DNA of 64,000 bases from NCBI GenBank assembly GCA_011884725.1, contig GCA_011884725.1_3919.1. One strand, 5' to 3'. This document shows positions 6,450-54,089 of this stretch, in pieces. Origin of the DNA: a phage. Positions within the stretch are counted from its first letter, which is position 1; every line of letters begins with the position of its first letter. The notes below the pieces were generated by a model, which saw nothing but the letters and a program-made list of their open reading frames with translations, made no database searches and was not told the origin of the DNA. Made by a program: the position numbers and the translations under genes.

Positions 6450-8010
6450 TATAAAGAGACTCTATACAGTCCCTTTCCTTTCCTTCCTAGAATCTATCCC
6501 ACTAATTCGATAGAGACTATCTCATACCTTAAAAAGCAATAACTCTATAGTCTACTCTATAACCTCTTATCAAATCAACTTAAATATAAGCCCATAACCC
6601 GAAAGGGAAGGGCAACCACTAAAACGCTCTATAAAGCTCTATAACAGCCTTATCAATCTAACTTAAGCAATCATATTAACCTACTCTAAAAAGCCCTTTA
6701 TAGAGCTTCCCAGAGCCTTAAAAGAATCTTATAAGGGTGTAAGCTTTATTATCTCGTTAGCTATCTTGTGAACTACTAAAAAGGGCTTGTTAGTGTCTTA
6801 AAAGTATGTTATAGGGGCTATAAAGTTACTTCAAAGTTACGTAAAAGGGGCTATAAAGTTACGTAAATGCTAGCCCCCTTAACATTTTCTTAACAATTTC
6901 TTAACAATCCCTACATAGTTATGCTTTTAAGGCACTTGTTAGAGACTTGTTAGCCCCTTGTTAAATCTCTGTTAAGACCACGTAAAAGCCTTGTAAGAGT
7001 CTTTAGCATAGCCTTTAAAGCCTCTGTAAAGCCCTATAAAGAGGTGTCTGTATAGTTGGGGTGTAATTACTAGGAAGAGACTTAAAAGAGCTTACAAGGA
7101 GCTATAGAGAGCTTTTAAGAGGGCTATTTAGAGAATCACTAAGAGGGAAAGGGAACGATAAGAAAAGAGATAGTGACCATGTTAATAGCTTGTTAAAAAG
7201 ATTAAACACTTGTTAGGAACTTGTTAATTATCCCTACAAAATAACTCTTTAAAATTAACTTGTTAGCTCTTGTTAGTCATCTGTTAAGATTCTGTAAAGC
7301 CTATGTATCAACTGTTAAGAAACTGTTACACCCTTGTTAGTTCTGTTAAGAATCTGTTAAGACCTCTGAAGAGATGTTAAGAAGATGTGAGAACTGTTAA
7401 GGAATTGTTAATGATATTTTAAAATTTTGCAAAGTACTTGTAAGGGAGTTGTTAAGGGCTACCAAGCAGATATACATCTTCTACAGATATTTTTCAGTCC
7501 CTTCAAAGACCCTAAAAAATGACTTGATAGTCCTATTTTATAAAAATTTTAAAATTCTGAATAATTACCTATACAGTCTTTTAAAAATACAGGTAATAAC
7601 AGGCTTATAAGATACCTTGTTAGTACCGTGTTAGACCTTGTGAGATAAGGTCTGTAAAGATATTCCTGTTAAGTTTGTTAAAACAGTCTATATAGAGGCT
7701 TAGTATTTCCTAGTGAACACCTATAGAGGGTAACATAGCTAACCTAGAGATTAAGAGGTGTATAGGAGCTTCTAAGAGGGTGTAGAGAGATGGTTAAGGT
7801 GATTGTATAGGTTGTTAAGAAGGCTTGTTAGAAGAGTGTTTAGAAGGGCTATACAGAGGGGCTATTAAGACCACTAGATAGATACTAAGATACTATATAG
7901 TACTATATAACTATATAGAGAGTAAGATTAAGAAGGTTGTTAAGAAGGGTAGATATTTTATTCACATATGATGGTGACCCAGCGGTTGGGACAACCGATA
8001 AATTTTATAA
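6450..8010. repeat. ORF-free region with dense phased short repeats (iteron-like)
   Basis: No ORF of 60 aa or more in any frame; more than 30 copies of (C)TTGTTA(A/G) and CTGTTAAG, several CTATAAAG, tandem GGGGCTATAAAGTTAC x2 (6817, 6846); spacing in 7261-7410 is multiples of about 10-11 bp. Confidence 0.75.
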
Positions 8011-17961: not shown

Positions 17962-18038
17962 CTCTGTTTAGCTCAGCTTGGTAGAGCGTTCCGTTTGGGG
18001 CGGTAAGGCCGGAGGTTCAAGTCCTCCAACAGAGACCA
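17962..18038 (+). tRNA. tRNA-Pro (anticodon TGG)
   Basis: 7-bp acceptor CTCTGTT/AACAGAG, T-arm GGAGGTTCAAGTCCTCC, anticodon loop TTTGGGG, encoded CCA. Confidence 0.75.
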
Positions 18039-18045
18039 AATTAAT

Positions 18046-18123
18046 GTTCCAGTAGACAAAATGGTAAAGTCACCACTCTTTCAAAGTGGATATCTGAGGG
18101 TTCAAATCCCTTCTGGAACGCCA
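18046..18123 (+). tRNA. tRNA-Glu (anticodon TTC)
   Basis: Acceptor GTTCCAG/CTGGAAC, anticodon stem CCACT/AGTGG, loop CTTTCAA, T-loop TTCAAAT, CCA. Confidence 0.75.
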
Positions 18124-18126
18124 GTT

Positions 18127-18205
18127 TTGACAGAAGACCAATTACAGCAAACTTAATCTTATTCATCTGAAGGTAAATCGGACAAAGAAGAGATTTGGTC
18201 TGGTC
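18127..18205 (+). ncRNA. inter-tRNA structured element E1
   Basis: CAGAAGACC-box, helix AGACCAA (18135-18141) / TTGGTCT (18195-18201), TTACAGCAAA box inside. Confidence 0.5.
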
Positions 18206-18214
18206 ATTAAGAAT

Positions 18215-18291
18215 TGCGGGTATAGAGAAAGGGCGTCTCACATGTCTCATTAGCATGGTATCGGCAGGTTCGACTCCTGCACCCGCCTCCA
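18215..18291 (+). tRNA. tRNA-Met-like (anticodon CAT) with 1:72 mismatch
   Basis: Anticodon stem CATGT/GCATG, loop CTCATTA, T-arm GCAGGTTCGACTCCTGC, 3' ACCCGCC-T-CCA; 5' end TGCGGGT leaves position 1 unpaired. Confidence 0.6.
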
Positions 18292-18294
18292 AAT

Positions 18295-18365
18295 TTACAG
18301 AAGACCGTTTACAGCAAAATTGAATGAAATTTTTAGCGGAAAAATTGAAAGATACGGTCTGGTAA
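18295..18365 (+). ncRNA. inter-tRNA structured element E2
   Basis: Helix AGACCGT (18302-18308) / ACGGTCT (18354-18360); compensatory to E1; TTACAGCAAAA box. Confidence 0.5.
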
Positions 18366-18375
18366 TACTAAACAT

Positions 18376-18449
18376 GGTTAGGAAGCACATAAGGTATGTG
18401 CGGTCGCCTGTTAAGCGAATGGCACAGGGTTCGAATCCCTGACTAACCG
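18376..18449 (+). tRNA. tRNA-Asn (anticodon GTT)
   Basis: Acceptor GGTTAGG, D-stem GCAC/GTGC, anticodon loop CTGTTAA, T-arm CAGGGTTCGAATCCCTG; no encoded CCA. Confidence 0.65.
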
Positions 18450-18461
18450 CAAAATTGAAAT

Positions 18462-18549
18462 GTGTCGTTATCCCGTAGATGGTAGCGGTGGGGACTGTAA
18501 ATCCCTTGTCATTGAGACTCGGTAGGTTCGACTCCTACACGGCACACCA
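18462..18549 (+). tRNA. tRNA-Tyr (anticodon GTA), long variable arm
   Basis: Acceptor GTGTCGT/ACGGCAC, anticodon loop CTGTAAA, long variable arm, T-arm GTAGGTTCGACTCCTAC, CCA. Confidence 0.7.
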
Positions 18550-18554
18550 ATAAA

Positions 18555-18631
18555 GGCTATGTAGTTTAACTGGAGAAAATACTCCCCTGTCACGGGAGAT
18601 GATGTGAGTTCAAGTCTCATCGTAGCCGCCA
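18555..18631 (+). tRNA. tRNA-Asp (anticodon GTC)
   Basis: Acceptor GGCTATG/CGTAGCC, anticodon stem CTCCC/GGGAG, loop CTGTCAC, T-loop TTCAAGT, CCA. Confidence 0.75.
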
Positions 18632-18685
18632 AATTATAATAAGTATTTCAAAATGATGTTTTGAGAGGGCTATTTAGCCCCTCCC

Positions 18686-18716
18686 TTAAAGAGTTCTTAC
18701 GAGTATTCTTTAAAGG
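18686..18716 (+). ncRNA. hairpin with conserved TTCTTACGAG loop, copy 1
   Basis: TTAAAGAGTTCTTACGAGTATTCTTTAAAGG; second copy at 22027-22056 has a different but still complementary stem. Confidence 0.45.
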
Positions 18717-18795
18717 AGCAGAAGACCAAATACAGCAAGAATGTATGATATTTTCAAGCCAATCCAATTTTGAAAAAATTTAAAACTTGGTCTGG
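18717..18795 (+). ncRNA. inter-tRNA structured element E3
   Basis: CAGAAGACC box, helix AGACCAA (18723-18729) / TTGGTCT (18787-18793), ATACAGCAAG box. Confidence 0.5.
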
Positions 18796-18804
18796 CTCAA
18801 CAAA

Positions 18805-18939
18805 TTTACAGAAGACCGTTTACAGCAAAACTTAAACAATCTATTTCTCGGTAAAGAAAAGGCGAAGGTTCGATTCCTTCACTCGGCAGATGTCGAGTTG
18901 GTGTAATGGTAGCACTTAAGATGATAAACAACGGTCTGG
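18805..18939 (+). ncRNA. element E4 enclosing a tRNA-like module
   Basis: Helix AGACCGTT (18813-18820) / AACGGTCT (18930-18937); inside: T-arm GAAGGTTCGATTCCTTC, hairpin ACTCGGC-AGAT-GTCGAGT, D-arm-like GTGTAATGGTAGCAC. The order is 3'-half before 5'-half. Confidence 0.45.
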
Positions 18940-18940
18940 T

Positions 18941-19084
18941 AATTATCTTTGTAGATAAGTTATTAAGCTTACCTGTGAGTATGCGACCACAAAGGGTGAA
19001 AGGGTAAATTCTAGATTTAAACCCAAAAAGGCACATCGCTACAGACCTTAAGCAAGTCTGGGTAGCTTATCTACAAAGATAATT
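18941..19084 (+). ncRNA. structured RNA closed by a 19-bp perfect helix
   Basis: AATTATCTTTGTAGATAAG (18941-18959) is the exact reverse complement of CTTATCTACAAAGATAATT (19066-19084); inner hairpins include CAGAC/GTCTG. Confidence 0.5.
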
Positions 19085-19088
19085 TAAT

Positions 19089-19164
19089 GGAAGTGTAGCA
19101 GAATGGTGATGCGGCAGACTTTTAATCTGACAGGCGATGGGTTCGAATCCCTCCACTTCTACCA
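19089..19164 (+). tRNA. tRNA-Lys (anticodon TTT)
   Basis: Acceptor GGAAGTG/CACTTCT (G1.U72), anticodon loop CTTTTAA, T-loop TTCGAAT (weak T-stem), CCA. Confidence 0.65.
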
Positions 19165-19168
19165 ATAT

Positions 19169-19245
19169 GGTTCAGTCGCAGATAAGGTAATGCAAGGGTC
19201 TCATAAGCCCTATGAATGTGGGTTCGATTCCCATCTGAACCTCCA
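19169..19245 (+). tRNA. tRNA with CAT anticodon (elongator Met or Ile2-type)
   Basis: Acceptor GGTTCAG/CTGAACC fully paired, anticodon stem AGGGT/GCCCT, loop CTCATAA, T-loop TTCGATT, CCA. Confidence 0.65.
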
Positions 19246-19246
19246 A

Positions 19247-19322
19247 GCTGGTATAGTTAAGAAGGTTATAACACTCCCCTGATAAGGGAACATCGGTGGT
19301 TCGATTCCACCTACCAGTACCA
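19247..19322 (+). tRNA. tRNA-Ile (anticodon GAT)
   Basis: Acceptor GCTGGTA/TACCAGT, anticodon loop CTGATAA, T-arm GGTGGTTCGATTCCACC, CCA. Confidence 0.7.
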
Positions 19323-19337
19323 ATTTCAATAAAGTTG

Positions 19338-19366
19338 TTGACATTGAGATGTGACTACTTTATAGT
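19338..19366 (+). promoter_or_regulatory. internal promoter within tRNA array
   Basis: TTGACA (19338-19343), 17-nt spacer, TATAGT (19361-19366). Confidence 0.6.
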
Positions 19367-19568
19367 AACCTTAGTTTTCGTTGCGTAGCGTCTATTTTGC
19401 AAATTTAAAATAAATGCAAACGACAATGTTTTTCTGGCAGTAGCTTGATAGGCTAAACACCAGTGAGGTCTTCCAATCCCTCATCAAAGAATTTGGCGTA
19501 CTCGCCCACGGTATGATTAATAAGGTGGGCATCTTTAAGGGCTTTCTAAGAGAGTCTTTAAAGATAAT

Positions 19569-19645
19569 GCACCCTTAGTTCAATTGGATAGAGCAACGGT
19601 CTTCTAAATCGTTAGTTACAGGTTCGAATCCTGTAGGGTGTACCA
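19569..19645 (+). tRNA. tRNA-Arg (anticodon TCT)
   Basis: Acceptor GCACCCT/AGGGTGT, D-arm TAGTTCAATTGGATAGAGC, anticodon loop CTTCTAA, T-loop TTCGAAT, CCA. Confidence 0.75.
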
Positions 19646-19787
19646 AATAGTTAGCAGATTACTTAGACGGCCTTAGCGGGTCTTCCTGTAGGGAGGTGGT
19701 CTGTATCTCATGTTTTCCAGAACATGTAAATAATCTGAGAAGAAGCTTGACAGTGTTGAGATAACAGGGTAAGCTTCGAATTATAAT

Positions 19788-19870
19788 ATGGGACGATGTT
19801 AAGACTCTAAGGCATGAGCAACGGCCTCCAAAACCGTTTCAAAGGGGTTCAACTCCTCCGTCCCATGCCA
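19788..19870 (+). tRNA. atypical tRNA (anticodon probably CCA, Trp?)
   Basis: Acceptor ATGGGAC/GTCCCAT, T-loop TTCAACT, CCA; anticodon stem AACGG/CCGTT encloses 9 nt (CCTCCAAAA); D region is 4-8 nt longer than usual. Confidence 0.45.
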
Positions 19871-19883
19871 AAGTCTTATTAGG

Positions 19884-19971
19884 GGTAGGTAGCGGCTAAT
19901 GGTAGCCAAACTGTCTTGAAAACAGTTGCCACTGTAGAGATACGGTGAGGGTTCGACTCCTTTACTTACCG
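19884..19971 (+). tRNA. tRNA-Ser (anticodon TGA), long variable arm
   Basis: Acceptor GGTAGGT/ACTTACC, anticodon stem ACTGT/ACAGT, loop CTTGAAA, long variable arm, T-loop TTCGACT. Confidence 0.65.
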
Positions 19972-20126
19972 CCTAATAAGATTTACTCCGTCCATGCTTG
20001 TTCGCATTGTCGGTTTATCCCTCGTGTATTGTCGTACACTGTCAAAGCACCTAGTAGGTGTCACGGAGAAGAGATAATATCAAGCTCTCCAAAGGTTCTA
20101 GTCACCGGATTAAACAAGACTATGCA

Positions 20127-20151
20127 AAGACCTATTTAGGTCTTTTTAGAG
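20127..20151 (+). terminator. intrinsic terminator inside tRNA array
   Basis: AAAGACC-TATTTA-GGTCTTT followed by TTTAG. Confidence 0.5.
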
Positions 20152-20227
20152 GGCTTCTAAGGTTATTAGTCGCTTGTTGTGGAACCTTGTTGCTTAGGTT
20201 CTTAGAAGTTCTCTAAAAAGATTTAAT

Positions 20228-20305
20228 GGGAGATTGACGGTAATTGGTAAACCTACCATCCTTAGAAGTTGGTGTTTGAGGGTTCGAATCCCTTGTCTCC
20301 TACCA
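20228..20305 (+). tRNA. tRNA, class I shape, anticodon TAG (Leu?)
   Basis: Acceptor GGGAGAT/GTCTCCT, anticodon loop CTTAGAA, 5-nt variable loop, T-loop TTCGAAT, A73, CCA. Confidence 0.5.
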
Positions 20306-20312
20306 AATTAAT

Positions 20313-20388
20313 GCAGGTGTAGCAAAATGGTTATGCGGCTGACTCTTAATCAGTAAGACGATGGGTTCAATTCCCTCCACCTGTACCA
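20313..20388 (+). tRNA. tRNA-Lys (anticodon CTT)
   Basis: Acceptor GCAGGTG/CACCTGT, anticodon stem GCTGA/TCAGT, loop CTCTTAA, T-loop TTCAATT, CCA. Confidence 0.6.
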
Positions 20389-20394
20389 AACATT

Positions 20395-20470
20395 GGGGAT
20401 GTAGTTTACATGGTTAAAACATAAGTTTTGCAAACTTAAGTACAGGGTTCAATTCCCTGCTTCTCCACCA
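20395..20470 (+). tRNA. tRNA-Cys (anticodon GCA)
   Basis: Anticodon stem AAGTT/AACTT, loop TTGCAAA, T-arm CAGGGTTCAATTCCCTG, CCA. Confidence 0.65.
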
Positions 20471-20476
20471 ATTAGT

Positions 20477-20551
20477 GCATCCATAGTTTAAACGGGAAAA
20501 TTACAGTCTTCCAAACTGAGGTTGAGGGTTCGATTCCCTCTGGATGCTCCA
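20477..20551 (+). tRNA. tRNA-Gly (anticodon TCC)
   Basis: Acceptor GCATCCA/TGGATGC, anticodon loop CTTCCAA, T-loop TTCGATT, CCA. Confidence 0.65.
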
Positions 20552-20557
20552 AACAAT

Positions 20558-20634
20558 GCTGCTTTCGTATAATTGGCTATTACACATCCCTTGTAAGGAT
20601 GGAAATGCAGGTTCGAGTCCTGTGAGCAGCACCA
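20558..20634 (+). tRNA. tRNA-Thr (anticodon TGT)
   Basis: Acceptor GCTGCTT/GAGCAGC, anticodon stem CATCC/GGATG, loop CTTGTAA, T-loop TTCGAGT, CCA. Confidence 0.7.
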
Positions 20635-20635
20635 A

Positions 20636-20730
20636 TTCAGAGGTCAAGTGAAAGACCGCTTTGAGTCAACTGAAGACCGTAACAAATACCACGGAGTTGA
20701 GTTAGCGGCACAACTTCAGACCTCTTTCAT
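20636..20730 (+). ncRNA. structured spacer element between tRNA-Thr and tRNA-Val
   Basis: Closing helix CAGAGGTC (20638-20645) / GACCTCTT (20722-20729); contains a GAAGACCGT box as in E2/E4; no T-loop. Confidence 0.4.
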
Positions 20731-20805
20731 ACTCGCTTAGTTTATATGGTAAAACATCACCCTTACAAGATGAAGAAAAAGGTTCAAGTCCTTTAGTGAG
20801 TACCA
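20731..20805 (+). tRNA. tRNA-Val (anticodon TAC)
   Basis: Acceptor ACTCGCT/AGTGAGT, anticodon loop CTTACAA, T-arm AAAGGTTCAAGTCCTTT, CCA. Confidence 0.6.
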
Positions 20806-20806
20806 T

Positions 20807-20884
20807 GTTCCAGTATCCCAATTGGCAGAGGATGCAAGCTCAAACCTTGTATTAGTGACGGTTCGAATCCGTCTTGGAACACCA
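20807..20884 (+). tRNA. tRNA, class I shape, anticodon CAA (Leu?)
   Basis: Acceptor GTTCCAG/TTGGAAC, anticodon stem GCAAG/CTTGT, loop CTCAAAC, T-arm GACGGTTCGAATCCGTC, A73, CCA. Confidence 0.5.
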
Positions 20885-20889
20885 ATTTT

Positions 20890-20965
20890 GCAGGATTAGT
20901 TCAAATGGAAAGAGCAACAGTCTACGAAGCTGTTAATAGGGGTTCGAATCCCTTATCCTGCGCCA
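20890..20965 (+). tRNA. tRNA-Arg (anticodon ACG)
   Basis: Acceptor GCAGGAT/ATCCTGC, D-stem GTTC/GAGC, anticodon stem ACAGT/GCTGT, loop CTACGAA, T-loop TTCGAAT, CCA. Confidence 0.75.
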
Positions 20966-20982
20966 GATAAAAAGGTGATACT

Positions 20983-21225
20983 ATGCAAACATTAACAGTA
21001 GTTGAACATGAAAACTGTGAGAGTATTGAGTTTGTCAGGGTCATTGGTGTTGAACACCACATTTTCTTAAAAGTGGGATACTTATGTGACCCCGCTAGAG
21101 TAGAAAGATTTATACGTGATTGTTTTGGTGGTAGACATCTGAAGAGTGTTATTTTTGAGACAGTTTTACCAGAAGGTTTAGAAACGAATAATAACATTTA
21201 CCTCCTTACGAGGATTAGACAATGA
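20983..21225 (+). CDS. hypothetical protein embedded in tRNA array
   Basis: 80-aa ORF; RBS AAAGGTGA 7 nt upstream of ATG. Confidence 0.5.
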   Translation: MQTLTVVEHENCESIEFVRVIGVEHHIFLKVGYLCDPARVERFIRDCFGGRHLKSVIFETVLPEGLETNNNIYLLTRIRQ

Positions 21226-21779
21226 GATACTTAAAGTATGCTTCATGGATTTTCTTAGCTTTGTTAGAGCCATTTGCAGCAATCTTAGCAGTTATCTTAG
21301 CACCTTTTGTAGTTCCATTCTACAGTGAGAAGAAAGGACACTTACCTTTCGGGTTCAGATGGATGGAGACATATGACAACCCAATTGATGGTGATGAAGG
21401 TCACGTTAAAAGATGGGCTAATATTAGATGGATTGGTAAACTAGGTGTCTACATGCAAAGAGTCGGATGGCTCTGGAGAAACAAAGCTTATAACTTCTCT
21501 TACCATGTATTAGGAAGAGATGTAAGAGATGTTACTAAGTGGAAAGGTAATATCAACGTAAGTTCTAACCCTGAAGATAATCAGACTGGTTATCTCCTAA
21601 TGTGGAACAGTAATGCTTGGGGATTATTCGCTTTTATCCCATCAATTAAAGTCTTCGGTAAACAGTTTTACTGGAGAATTTATGTTGGATGGAAACTTAA
21701 AAGTGTTGTCCCAGAAGAAAGAGCATTCTCAAGGGAAAGAGTTATGTTGGCATTCTTTATTCATCCACTGAGAAAGTAA
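21222..21779 (+). CDS. hypothetical membrane protein embedded in tRNA array
   Basis: 185 aa; N-terminal TM segment (WIFLALLEPFAAILAVILAPFVVPF); start overlaps previous stop; RBS GAGGA. Confidence 0.6.
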   Translation: MRYLKYASWIFLALLEPFAAILAVILAPFVVPFYSEKKGHLPFGFRWMETYDNPIDGDEGHVKRWANIRWIGKLGVYMQRVGWLWRNKAYNFSYHVLGRDVRDVTKWKGNINVSSNPEDNQTGYLLMWNSNAWGLFAFIPSIKVFGKQFYWRIYVGWKLKSVVPEERAFSRERVMLAFFIHPLRK

Positions 21780-21787
21780 AGATTTAA

Positions 21788-21863
21788 AGGGGATTAGTTT
21801 ACAAGGTTAAAACCTCGGTCTTTGAAATCGAAGAAGTTGGTTCAATTCCAACATCCCCCGCCA
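21788..21863 (+). tRNA. tRNA-Gln (anticodon TTG)
   Basis: Anticodon stem TCGGT/ATCGA, loop CTTTGAA, T-arm GTTGGTTCAATTCCAAC, 3' ATCCCCC-G-CCA; position 1 (A) unpaired with C72. Confidence 0.6.
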
Positions 21864-21865
21864 AT

Positions 21866-21944
21866 GCTCCATTACTCCAATTGGCAGAGAGGCCAGACTT
21901 AAAATCTGTGTTATGTATCGGTTCGAATCCGATATGGAGTACCA
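21866..21944 (+). tRNA. tRNA, class I shape, anticodon TAA (Leu?)
   Basis: Acceptor GCTCCAT/ATGGAGT, anticodon loop CTTAAAA, T-arm ATCGGTTCGAATCCGAT, A73, CCA. Confidence 0.5.
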
Positions 21945-21949
21945 AATTT

Positions 21950-22025
21950 AGCGGTATAGCATAACTGGCAATGCAGCAGTCTCTGAAGCTGTCCTATTAA
22001 GGTTCAAATCCTTATGCCGCTGCCA
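21950..22025 (+). tRNA. tRNA-Gln (anticodon CTG)
   Basis: Acceptor AGCGGTA/TGCCGCT, D-stem GCAT/ATGC, anticodon stem GCAGT/GCTGT, loop CTCTGAA, T-loop TTCAAAT, CCA. Confidence 0.6.
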
Positions 22026-22026
22026 C

Positions 22027-22056
22027 TTCTAAGGATTCTTACGAGAGTCCTTAAAT
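22027..22056 (+). ncRNA. hairpin with conserved TTCTTACGAG loop, copy 2
   Basis: TTCTAAGGATTCTTACGAGAGTCCTTAAATG; stem TAAGGATTC/GAGTCCTTA. Confidence 0.45.
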
Positions 22057-22132
22057 GTGGCCTTATCATAAATGGTAATGACCCATGCTGTGAACATGGT
22101 CTATACGGGTTCAAATCCCGTAGGTCACCCCA
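22057..22132 (+). tRNA. tRNA-His (anticodon GTG)
   Basis: Acceptor GTGGCCT/AGGTCAC, anticodon stem CCATG/CATGG, loop CTGTGAA, T-arm ACGGGTTCAAATCCCGT, CCA. Confidence 0.7.
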
Positions 22133-22138
22133 ATTTAT

Positions 22139-22214
22139 AGTCCAAGTAGCTTATATGGTTAAAGCGCGTGTCTGAAAAACATGAGAAGAGGGTTCAAATC
22201 CCACTGGACTACCA
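22139..22214 (+). tRNA. tRNA-Phe (anticodon GAA)
   Basis: Acceptor AGTCCAA/CTGGACT, anticodon stem CGTGT/ACATG, loop CTGAAAA, T-loop TTCAAAT (short T-stem), CCA. Confidence 0.6.
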
Positions 22215-22230
22215 ATTTCAAAGGTGCTTA

Positions 22231-22965
22231 ATGAAAGAGATGACAGAACAAGGTAAGGAGATTTTCAATCTCTTAAAAACCGGTAAAGGGTTTTCTAACC
22301 CCCTTATTACTGGTGCAGCAGTTCTCGGTGGAACCGTAGCTGCCTCTACATCACTTGTAAGCTCTATTAGCTCTGTATCAGACCCTACAGTAAAGGATAA
22401 GCTTGTTGCTGCTGGACTTACAACAGTTCTGCTTAACAGCTTTACCACGAGTCTGACAAGCACTACATCAACTACCAAAACACTAACAGATTACGGTCAA
22501 AAGTCCATTGATGAGTTTTCATCACGTATGCAGGTAGCAAAAGGTTACTCTAATGTTATGGGTGCAGCAGGTGAACAAGTTGGCTGTACACCATTTAGTG
22601 GTATTATGGGTGTTGCTACAGAGTATGGTCAAAAAACTATTGATACGATTAACAGTGTACTAGATAGTGTTAATGGTGTGTTAAGTGACTTACAAGATGC
22701 TATTGACAAAGGTCTTGATACTATTTCTGATTTAGCTGAGCAAGCTGTTAGTAAGATTAATGAAGGTATTTCAAAAATTACAGCTTATGCAGATGAAGTT
22801 GTGCAGATGATTGAAGAAGAAGCTGCTCTTATTGCAGAGTACCTTAAAACGAATATCAATGGGTTCTTAGCAGGTATCTTACCAGACTGGTTTGATGATG
22901 CTTGTAAAACTGGTGTAATTGACACTATTGCAACACCAGAAATGAAGAACGCATTACAGAAATAA
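22231..22965 (+). CDS. hypothetical protein (Ser/Thr-rich N-half, helical C-half)
   Basis: Listed ORF starts at 22168 inside tRNA-Phe; in-frame ATG at 22231 with RBS AAAGG chosen. Confidence 0.55.
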   Translation: MKEMTEQGKEIFNLLKTGKGFSNPLITGAAVLGGTVAASTSLVSSISSVSDPTVKDKLVAAGLTTVLLNSFTTSLTSTTSTTKTLTDYGQKSIDEFSSRMQVAKGYSNVMGAAGEQVGCTPFSGIMGVATEYGQKTIDTINSVLDSVNGVLSDLQDAIDKGLDTISDLAEQAVSKINEGISKITAYADEVVQMIEEEAALIAEYLKTNINGFLAGILPDWFDDACKTGVIDTIATPEMKNALQK

Positions 22966-22967
22966 AT

Positions 22968-23060
22968 GGAAGATTAACCCTAAAAGGTAAGGGAGCAGTT
23001 TGCTAAACTGCCAGTAGCTGAGAAATCGGTGTACCAGTTCAAGTCTGGTATCTTCCTCCA
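22968..23060 (+). tRNA. tRNA-Ser (anticodon GCT), long variable arm
   Basis: Acceptor GGAAGAT/ATCTTCC, D-stem CCC/GGG, anticodon stem GCAGT/ACTGC, loop TTGCTAA, long variable arm, T-arm ACCAGTTCAAGTCTGGT, CCA. Confidence 0.7.
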
Positions 23061-23064
23061 ATTT

Positions 23065-23140
23065 GAATCCGTGACAGAAACGGCTATGTGCCTGTCTGCA
23101 AAACAGGTTTATAAGGGTTCGAGTCCCTTCGGATTCTCCA
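23065..23140 (+). tRNA. tRNA with GCA anticodon (second Cys-like)
   Basis: Acceptor GAATCCG/CGGATTC, anticodon stem CCTGT/ACAGG, loop CTGCAAA, T-arm AAGGGTTCGAGTCCCTT, CCA; atypical D-arm. Confidence 0.5.
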
Positions 23141-53585: not shown

Positions 53586-54089
53586 TCAACTTAGTTTTGC
53601 AAACTCTCCGTGGAGTTTTACAGCAGCTTCACAGTATGCTTTATGGGCTTCTTCAGGGGTGTCAAATAAACCAAGTGATGTCCTTTTACCTCTGCATGTT
53701 ATAGCTGCCCTCCACTTATTACAGTCTTTAAAGTAATGTACACCCTTGTAACCTGATTTATTAGTCGTCTGCTTTATTCTATTTTGTGCATTTCCGTATT
53801 TATCAGTCTCCCTAAGATTAGAAATGTGATTATTACTTCTGTTACCATCAATGTGGTCTATCATCTTAGTAGGTTTGTAACCATGTTCGAACCACCAAAC
53901 GAGGTGATGAATTTTTATTACGACATCTTTGAATTTAAGTACTTTGTAACCGTAAGCATCAGCACCTCCTGCAATCTGCCCAGCTTTAGCTTGTCTATTC
54001 CTGTCATACTTGTTGTAGAAGACCCCTTTGTCGGGGTCGTAAATAAAATTATCCTTGTAATCTTGAAGTGTTAGTGTACGGCGTACCAT
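53586..54089 (-). CDS. HNH homing endonuclease with AP2 DNA-binding domain
   Basis: HNH core HHLVWWFEHGYKPTKMIDHIDGNRSNNHISNLR; AP2-like SGYKGVHYFKDCNKWRAAI..LGLFDTPEEAHKAY; start overlaps the DNA polymerase 3' end. Confidence 0.8.
   Translation of the reverse strand: MVRRTLTLQDYKDNFIYDPDKGVFYNKYDRNRQAKAGQIAGGADAYGYKVLKFKDVVIKIHHLVWWFEHGYKPTKMIDHIDGNRSNNHISNLRETDKYGNAQNRIKQTTNKSGYKGVHYFKDCNKWRAAITCRGKRTSLGLFDTPEEAHKAYCEAAVKLHGEFAKLS

Follow-up and report, generated by a model that had tools for sequence, protein, structure and literature searches.

Within the window analysed here, 64,000 nucleotides (nt) of phage DNA (contig GCA_011884725.1_3919.1 of GenBank assembly GCA_011884725.1), the 83 nt at positions 19788-19870 of the plus strand probably constitute the phage's own functional, structurally non-canonical and selectively maintained gene for a tryptophan transfer RNA (tRNA) with anticodon CCA, tRNA-Trp(CCA). 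The source of the window is a Felix O1-like myovirus of the Ounavirinae (Felixounavirus); over the 1 kb surrounding the element, it is 99.6% identical to Escherichia phage dune, and 277 phage records match this stretch. The element lies inside a cluster in which ARAGORN identifies 26 tRNA genes (17962-23140), all on the plus strand as the element is, and it occupies the slot between tRNA-Arg(TCT) and tRNA-Ser(TGA). Together, the 26 genes cover 19 amino acids, Trp being the sole isotype absent from the ARAGORN set.

The element can be written as ATGGGAC-GATGTTAAGA-CTC-TAAGGCAT-GAG-C-AACGG-C-CTCCAAA-A-CCGTT-TCAA-A-GGGG-TTCAACT-CCTC-C-GTCCCAT-G-CCA. A first-pass annotation of this DNA had described its acceptor arm as canonical, and so it is: the 5′ strand ATGGGAC (positions 1-7, 19788-19794) forms seven Watson-Crick pairs with GTCCCAT at 19860-19866, followed by the discriminator G73 (19867) and an encoded CCA end (19868-19870). 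The acceptor stem is followed by an expanded connector, GATGTTAAGA (19795-19804), of 10 nt instead of the 2 nt (U8, N9) of a normal tRNA, and by a D arm (19805-19818) composed of the stem CTC (19805-19807)/GAG (19816-19818) and an 8-nt loop, TAAGGCAT, with a GG dinucleotide. In the anticodon arm (19820-19838), AACGG/CCGTT forms five Watson-Crick pairs, equivalent to 26-44 to 30-40, and an unpaired C31 (19825) and A39 (19833) flank the 7-nt loop CTCCAAA (19826-19832), which holds the anticodon CCA at 19828-19830. As had been noticed before, AACGG/CCGTT is the only perfect 5-base-pair (bp) anticodon stem and closes a 9-nt loop, CCTCCAAAA; to obtain the 7-nt loop CTCCAAA, a C.A mismatch has to be accepted as the closing pair. 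The remainder (19839-19859, plus strand) comprises the variable region TCAA, A49, the T stem GGGG/CCTC, the T loop TTCAACT and C65. The T arm, also said to be canonical, is so in its loop, which carries the TTC..A..C signature, and not in its stem, where four pairs, one of them G.U, are accompanied by an A49.C65 mismatch. The element thus has the 7-bp acceptor stem, discriminator and CCA end of an elongator tRNA and a D stem within the 3-5 bp range with GG in its loop, and departs from the canonical form in its connector and its anticodon stem. The rule that two unpaired nt (U8, N9) separate the acceptor and D stems (PMC7609411) is broken by a connector of 10 nt (9 if G8 pairs with C65), and the canonical 5-bp stem from 27-43 to 31-39 is replaced by five Watson-Crick pairs that sit one step up, from 26-44 to 30-40.

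The main support for a functional gene comes from the pattern of substitutions among its homologues, which were collected with patterns that left the parts under test unconstrained and were supplemented with GenBank records. The main clade comprises 54 loci with 14 distinct 83-nt sequences and no indels; with a clade of Pectobacterium and Yersinia phages added, the full set comes to 16 distinct homologues, and at least five lineages of the Ounavirinae are represented in it. Across the 14 distinct sequences, the cloverleaf with the CTC/GAG D stem is paired in 99.2% of cells, six pairs having changed on both sides, and its covariation score is 0.278, compared with 0.107 in shuffled alignments (none of 500 reached 0.278) and at most 0.049 in controls with slid partners. 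RNAalifold, unprompted, predicts the same cloverleaf from the homologues. Among the 16 distinct sequences, no stem has lost its pairing, and at ten stem pairs, spread over all four arms, both partners have changed in a compensatory way. In the acceptor stem, paired in 16/16, positions 1-72 (AU/GU/GC) and 2-71 (UA/CG) covary; so do all three D-stem pairs (CG/AU, UA/AU/CG and CG/AU; 16/16 paired), four of the five anticodon-stem pairs (all five paired in 16/16) and pair 50-64 of the T stem (GC/UA). The most divergent copies, at about 76% identity, belong to four Pectobacterium phages and one Yersinia phage and sit in the same Arg(TCT)-element-Ser(TGA) slot. In this clade (Arno18/P778) the D stem is completely re-coded into four pairs, [U/C]ACA/UGUG, the acceptor pairs 1-72 and 2-71 have switched from AU and UA to GC and CG, and the anticodon stem has become GUAGG/CCUAC. 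U33, the CCA anticodon, A37, the GG of the D loop, the TTC..A..C positions of the T loop, G53-C61, G73 and the CCA end are invariant, and variable sites are almost confined to the stems and to loop positions 32, 38, 57 and 59; within the anticodon loop, variation falls at 32 and 38, a pattern also seen in ordinary 7-nt loops. GenBank contains the element in 236 phage records, out of about 260 relatives, and no tRNA annotation exists at its position in those of the 236 that were sampled. All in all, the cloverleaf has been preserved in more than 240 phage genomes. No other tRNA-Trp was found in the complete genome of the near-identical phage dune or in the tRNA cluster of Arno18.

Other ways of drawing the D stem, and one pairing of the connector, did not withstand this comparison. 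TTAA/TGAG, the D stem chosen by ARAGORN in its mitochondrial mode, is paired in only 67.9% of cells, and both it and GTT/AGC, the register of the tRNA-Sec alignment and of MAFFT, are broken by the A30-to-T change of the Mooglevirus and Suspvirus lineages, which is compensated in CTC/GAG. TAAGACT/AGTCTTA, which would join the connector to the 3′ trailer, can pair in the window but is not kept in CHB7, L038, L043 and P778, so it was taken as coincidence. The connector could also pair with the D loop (ATG/CAT) or the T loop (GUU/AAC); it is itself invariant, and the variation of the T loop fits GUU/AAC only in part.

The identity of the element as tRNA-Trp(CCA), which the first-pass annotation had offered as its second option, stands; its qualification as degenerate does not, all four stems being kept by compensatory substitutions. 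The major bacterial Trp identity elements are the anticodon, G73 and the first acceptor pair (PMC9976931). All of them are present, with CCA at 19828-19830, an invariant G73 and A1-U72 in the window; other lineages carry G1.U72 or G1-C72 as the first pair.

The expanded connector, possibly combined with an 8/4 geometry, is the unusual part of the element. Between the acceptor stem and the equivalent of position 26 there are 25 nt, compared with 16-19 in a normal tRNA, in line with the earlier estimate of a D region 4-8 nt too long. In a deletion scan, removal of any 6-nt block, or of one particular 5-nt block, from positions 9-19 turns the element into a standard ARAGORN tRNA-Trp(cca), and MAFFT alignment with five other tRNA-Trp sequences opens a gap of 7-8 nt at the connector/D region. 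Because the D stem backed by covariation is CTC/GAG, the extra nucleotides are assigned to the connector, from which about eight would loop out of the tRNA core. RNAalifold pairs G8 (19795) with C65 (19859) to give an 8-bp acceptor stem. G8-C65 is pairable in all 16 distinct homologues and A49.C65 is mismatched in all of them, which, together with the RNAalifold model, suggests an acceptor/T stack of 8/4 rather than 7/5. The tRNA-Trp of viral contig L110, in which this acceptor stem goes together with a normal U8 and with pairing of A49 to U65, is in line with this idea. Since the positions concerned are invariant, sequence does not separate the 7/5 and 8/4 models.

A related question is why the connector is so strictly preserved. 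GATGTTAAGA is identical in all 16 distinct homologues, even where the adjacent D stem is fully re-coded, and its invariance while D stem, D loop, anticodon stem and acceptor pairs changed implies a sequence-specific constraint beyond that on a passive bulge. One might think of an RNA that resembles a tRNA and acts outside translation, decoying or sponging up a host tRNA-targeting nuclease or a phage or host protein with the connector as its recognition handle, or of the connector as a DNA site for a putative TGTTAAGA-binding protein. The 8-mer TGTTAAGA, contained in the connector, occurs 18 times in the window compared with 5.4 expected, and ten of these copies lie in an array at about 6880-7950, of which it is the core: some 1.1 kb of non-coding DNA with (C/T)TGTTA(A/G)-type repeats spaced by 11, 20 and 31 nt that looks, from its repeat structure, like an iteron or operator array. 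Clusters of the 8-mer also occur in non-coding DNA of Arno18, at 17.2-18.3 kb and at 31.8-31.9 kb, and at the beginning of the dune record, and the exact 10-mer of the connector is found three times in the window compared with 0.27 expected. Its copy in the element would lie about 15-22 nt downstream of the predicted transcription start, a position compatible with an operator. Outside the array, however, the 8-mer is not enriched (8 copies vs about 5 expected) and its copy in the tRNA gene may be due to chance; besides, the tRNA-Trp that replaces the element in sister phages lacks such a motif. A decoy would have no need for an invariant U33-CCA-A37, G73, CCA end and full Trp identity set, and it would leave unexplained why Trp is the missing isotype and why sister phages carry a conventional tRNA-Trp in the same slot. 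We regard both the non-translational role and the DNA site as unlikely.

The mismatch below the anticodon stem is the second feature that calls for an explanation. Position 31.39 is paired in none of the 16 distinct homologues (C.A in 14, and C.C in two that form one clade), and none of them shows a normal, closed 7-nt loop, the comparison that the first-pass annotation had proposed as a check. The unpaired 31.39 is real and apparently selected. That the invariant connector and the never-paired 31.39 are both functional adaptations, either for relaxed decoding or with the GATGTTAAGA bulge as a handle for a phage or host factor, seems to us quite unlikely; if it were true, the element would be a natural tRNA of a bacterial system whose working fold breaks the canonical cloverleaf rules, and a handle might, for instance, help to evade a defence that targets tRNAs or link the supply of tRNA-Trp to a protein that binds the TGTTAAGA array.

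A more specific proposal is that of a specialised decoder, a Trp-charged tRNA whose altered anticodon arm and D region shift decoding towards low-level reading of UGA as Trp or towards +1 or quadruplet decoding. Single transitions would suffice to pair 31.39, and four neighbouring pairs have turned over, yet 31.39 is unpaired in 16/16. Changes remote from the anticodon can alter what tRNA-Trp(CCA) reads: readthrough of UGA has been shown for tRNA-Trp variants unpinned at the top of the stem (27-43) and for the A9C and G24A variants; in E. coli, C27A raises it about 2.5-fold (PMC13092985). The insertion of the element falls right within the stretch from position 9 to position 24, and by analogy, the Hirsh D-arm mutant and tRNA-Trp(CCA) variants with 4-bp anticodon stems read UGA. 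On the other hand, the top of the element's stem, the site unpinned in known readthrough variants, is Watson-Crick paired and even extended by 26-44. In addition, TGA is an ordinary stop codon in the window (16 of 75 long open reading frames) and no readthrough signal was detected in the window's frames, the open frame behind TGA having a median of 4.5 codons vs 7 behind TAA. No candidate recoding site was identified in a survey limited to stop codons and extensions. As to frameshifting, the role suggested in the first place by the enlarged loop, classical frameshift suppressors carry an extra base next to the anticodon. In the element, the enlargement is symmetrical, with one base on each side of a CUCCAAA identical to the host loop; U33, CCA and A37 are invariant, and none of the 16 distinct homologues has an 8-nt anticodon loop. 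C31.A39 also occurs in the normal-length tRNA-Trp of Erwinia phage phiEa21-4, and a second type of Ounavirinae tRNA-Trp (type B, see below) pairs T31-A39 around the same loop. The frameshift idea is thus not borne out, and specialised decoding as a whole strikes us as very doubtful. As a separate observation, one 167-amino-acid open reading frame (53586-54089, minus strand) ends in TGA and is followed by 86 more open codons in frame, being the only TGA-ended frame with a long downstream extension.

Several observations weigh against a functional tRNA-Trp. ARAGORN in its standard mode reports no gene at 19788-19870 at any sensitivity tried, including lowered thresholds and the intron mode; the Rfam tRNA model RF00005 finds no match there at its gathering score, and at E<=10 the sole match from its clan, the rest being noise, is to tRNA-Sec with 23 bits vs a gathering score of 47. 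Folded as a single sequence, the element is only modestly better than its shuffles (z = -1.71). The five Pectobacterium and Yersinia records (L293 2499-2584, L294, L295 among them) all keep an extra U in the 3′ acceptor strand (GTCC-T-CGC), which creates a one-base bulge, and T-stem mismatches appear in some lineages (U51.U63 in four loci, G50.G64 in one). The element lacks U31-A39, which computation predicts to be a determinant of tRNA-Trp in E. coli (PMC9976931). The per-site diversity of the element, 0.073, is no lower than that of the spacer (0.056) or of tRNA-Arg (0.079). Moreover, we know of no precedent for a 10-nt connector among bacterial-type tRNAs, and since the connector displaces U8, folding into a correct L-shape is an assumption. 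Part of this list has a simple reason: standard finders skip the element because of the approximately eight extra bases between acceptor stem and D arm, and in its permissive mitochondrial mode ARAGORN does place a Trp(cca) gene precisely on 19788-19870, and nowhere else in the cluster does that mode add a convincing call. As substitution rate does not distinguish the element from the spacers, the case for selection rests on the substitution pattern. That pattern also makes it very improbable that the element is a pseudogene in decay, derived from a tRNA-Trp that lost its function to a D-region insertion and has drifted from then on: rejection by standard detectors, the mismatches at 31.39, at 49.65 and occasionally elsewhere in the T stem, the bulged acceptor stem of the Arno18 clade, a diversity near that of the spacers and the replacement of the element in some phages by another tRNA-Trp plus an HNH endonuclease gene would all suit decay, but drift would hardly leave ten compensated stem pairs with every stem still closed (99% of cells paired), no indels in 54 main-clade loci, an anticodon, U33, A37, G73 and CCA that are invariant from Escherichia to Pectobacterium phages, and retention in 236 of about 260 relatives, with no other tRNA-Trp in the dune genome or the Arno18 cluster.

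If the element is a working tRNA-Trp gene, as we favour, it would be transcribed with the tRNA cluster from a promoter-like site of its own, from a stronger one upstream of tRNA-Arg, or from both. RNase P would then cut the 5′ end at A19788, the 3′ end would be trimmed to the encoded CCA, and the host tryptophanyl-tRNA synthetase would charge the product by virtue of its anticodon CCA, G73 and first acceptor pair. By reading UGG, the charged tRNA would complete the phage set for all 20 amino acids. The candidate sigma-70-type promoter of its own, read from the sequence, lies at 19747-19775 on the plus strand (-35 TTGACA at 19747-19752, 17-nt spacer, -10 TAAGCT at 19770-19775); from it, a start at about 19782 and a leader of about 6 nt are predicted. 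Its hexamers are kept in eight phages, carriers of type B included (-35 TTGACA or TTTACA, -10 TAAGCT), and a promoter scan picks instead a weaker overlapping site, TTGAGA-17-AATTAT, at 19756-19784. Farther upstream, before tRNA-Arg(TCT), a near-consensus promoter-like site, TTGACA-17-TATAGT (19338-19366; 11/12 matches), could co-transcribe Arg, the Trp element and Ser.

The surroundings of the element yielded some further observations. The Rfam tRNA model confirms 24 of the 26 cluster tRNAs at its gathering score; tRNA-Met(CAT) at 18215-18291 and tRNA-Tyr(GTA) at 18462-18549, both called by ARAGORN, stay below it. Their equivalents in Felix O1 received Cove scores of 28.9 (Met) and 39.92 (Tyr, labelled 'Pseudo (Tyr)') (PMC3185647). 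The spacers of the cluster are polymorphic for indels: many relatives match 19300-20300 of the window in two pieces, with about 90 extra bases, and in phage UAB_69 tRNA-Arg lies about 90 nt farther from tRNA-Ile than in the window. Downstream of the element in Arno18, a homologue of tRNA-Ser(TGA) (L293, about 2601-2690, AGTAGGT...ACCTACT G CC) has no annotation, is missed by ARAGORN and may represent a further non-canonical tRNA of that clade. In phiEa21-4, the gap between Arg and Leu (L033, about 2455-2560) holds an unannotated tRNA-like remnant with an acceptor-like AGTGATT/AATCACT, a GGTTCGAATCC T arm and a GCCA end, which ARAGORN does not call either. Enzymes of the polynucleotide kinase class contribute to tRNA repair in T4, and dune_23 of phage dune (L070 11050-11745) is annotated as such a kinase, which may be relevant to conflicts between phage and host over tRNA.

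Why has this gene gone unrecorded? In the Felix O1 paper, 22 tRNAs are given and Trp is not among them (PMC3185647), and the Sf14 study counts 26 tRNAs for 19 amino acids (PMC12482277); the literature searched contained no earlier description of the gene and no transcriptomics of these phages. As far as the searchable literature and the sampled records show, the element had so far been unannotated, and it exposes a blind spot of tRNA gene finders. Felix O1-like phages are widely used in typing, biocontrol and therapy of Salmonella and E. coli. A gene that would complete their tRNA set bears on whether phage translation can be independent of a host tRNA pool that is degraded or attacked.

Judged by its sequence, the element is a new structural variant of phage tRNA-Trp, and it is best understood beside its relatives. 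The closest in position is type B, a 71-nt tRNA-Trp(CCA) that fills the same slot in 23 sister Ounavirinae records, wV8, phiSUSP1, GE_vB_7A, the O157 typing phages 11, 12 and 15 and others among its carriers. Type B shares with the element (type A) the Arg(TCT)/Ser(TGA) slot, the conserved promoter-like sequence, the anticodon loop, G73 and the encoded CCA. In type B, by contrast, the D region is reduced to a 1-nt connector, a 3-bp stem and a 5-nt loop, T31 pairs with A39, the acceptor stem is AGGGGTG and the T stem has 5 bp; ARAGORN calls it, and several records annotate it as tRNA-Trp. An HNH endonuclease gene (134 amino acids; phrog_2255 of PHROGs, E=3e-45; Pfam gives nothing for this open reading frame) follows type B, the two lying at 651-721 and 740-1144 of L006 (phiSUSP1) and being found also in L007 and L029-L031. 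This arrangement suggests that type A was replaced by a type B cassette associated with a homing endonuclease.

Other phage tRNA-Trp genes resemble the element in sequence. The gene of phiEa21-4 (Kolesnikvirus), called by ARAGORN with a 7-nt loop, has the same CGGC-CUCCAAA-ACCG arm, C31.A39 included; unlike the element, it is located between tRNA-Gly and tRNA-Thr, which are directly adjacent in the window, where that slot is empty. A scan with acceptor strands only (TGGGAC N50-80 GTCCCATGCCA) over viral and bacterial collections returned mostly chance matches, found L110 and L116 and, among the matches listed, no bacterial counterpart. These two viral contigs have exactly the acceptor stem ATGGGAC/GTCCCAT, G73 and CCA of the element; L110 adds a near-identical T arm and L116 the C31.A39. 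In contrast to the element, the genes of phiEa21-4, L110 and L116 have the usual TA as connector and a length of 74-76 nt; in that of L110 (74 nt, called by ARAGORN), A49 also pairs with U65 and the anticodon stem is paired throughout. The L116 gene (9875-9948 of an IMG/VR contig of 59 kb with 26 tRNAs), a 75-nt tRNA-Trp(CCA)-like gene, is not called by ARAGORN in spite of its normal length. A plausible ancestor of the element is an ordinary phage tRNA-Trp that already had this acceptor stem and whose D region received an insertion, which may have supplied a new 5′ strand of the D stem while the old strand became part of the connector; the idea comes from the MAFFT register against E. coli, which aligns GATGTT with UAGUUC.

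With the single-copy host tRNA-Trp(CCA), E. coli trpT, the element has in common the loop CUCCAAA, A1-U72, G73, the CCA end, GAGC as the 3′ strand of the D stem, A26 and the anticodon-stem core CGG/CCG. The host tRNA, of 76 nt rather than 83, differs in its 2-nt U8-A9 connector, its 4-bp D stem GUUC/GAGC, its paired U31-A39 and its 7/5 stack with 49-65 paired. A possible 8-bp acceptor plus 4-bp T stem and an unusual D region recall tRNA-Sec and the (8/4) allo-tRNAs (PMC7609411), but the extra nucleotides of the element form a single-stranded connector, a feature of neither family. Assignment to tRNA-Sec itself (RF01852) was rejected: besides the 23 bits vs 47, the anticodon is CCA and not UCA, there is no long variable arm (4-5 nt), the stack has 12 layers and not 13 and the D stem 3 bp and not 6. 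With frameshift suppressors such as sufD, sufJ and engineered quadruplet decoders, the element shares an anticodon loop formally larger than 7 nt; theirs is an 8-nt loop in which a single base has been added beside or inside the anticodon, while here an unpaired 31.39 flanks a 7-nt loop. A minor class described before in bacteria is that of 267 tRNA-Trp(CCA) genes 'unpinned at the very bottom', which were left unstudied (PMC13092985). The element shows what defines this class, namely a CCA anticodon, a non-Watson-Crick 31.39 and a loop enlarged by 2 nt, and differs from it in that the class is otherwise canonical, whereas the element adds the connector insertion and a Watson-Crick 26-44 and thereby retains five stacked pairs. 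The element thus offers a concrete test case for the bottom-unpinned tRNA-Trp class.

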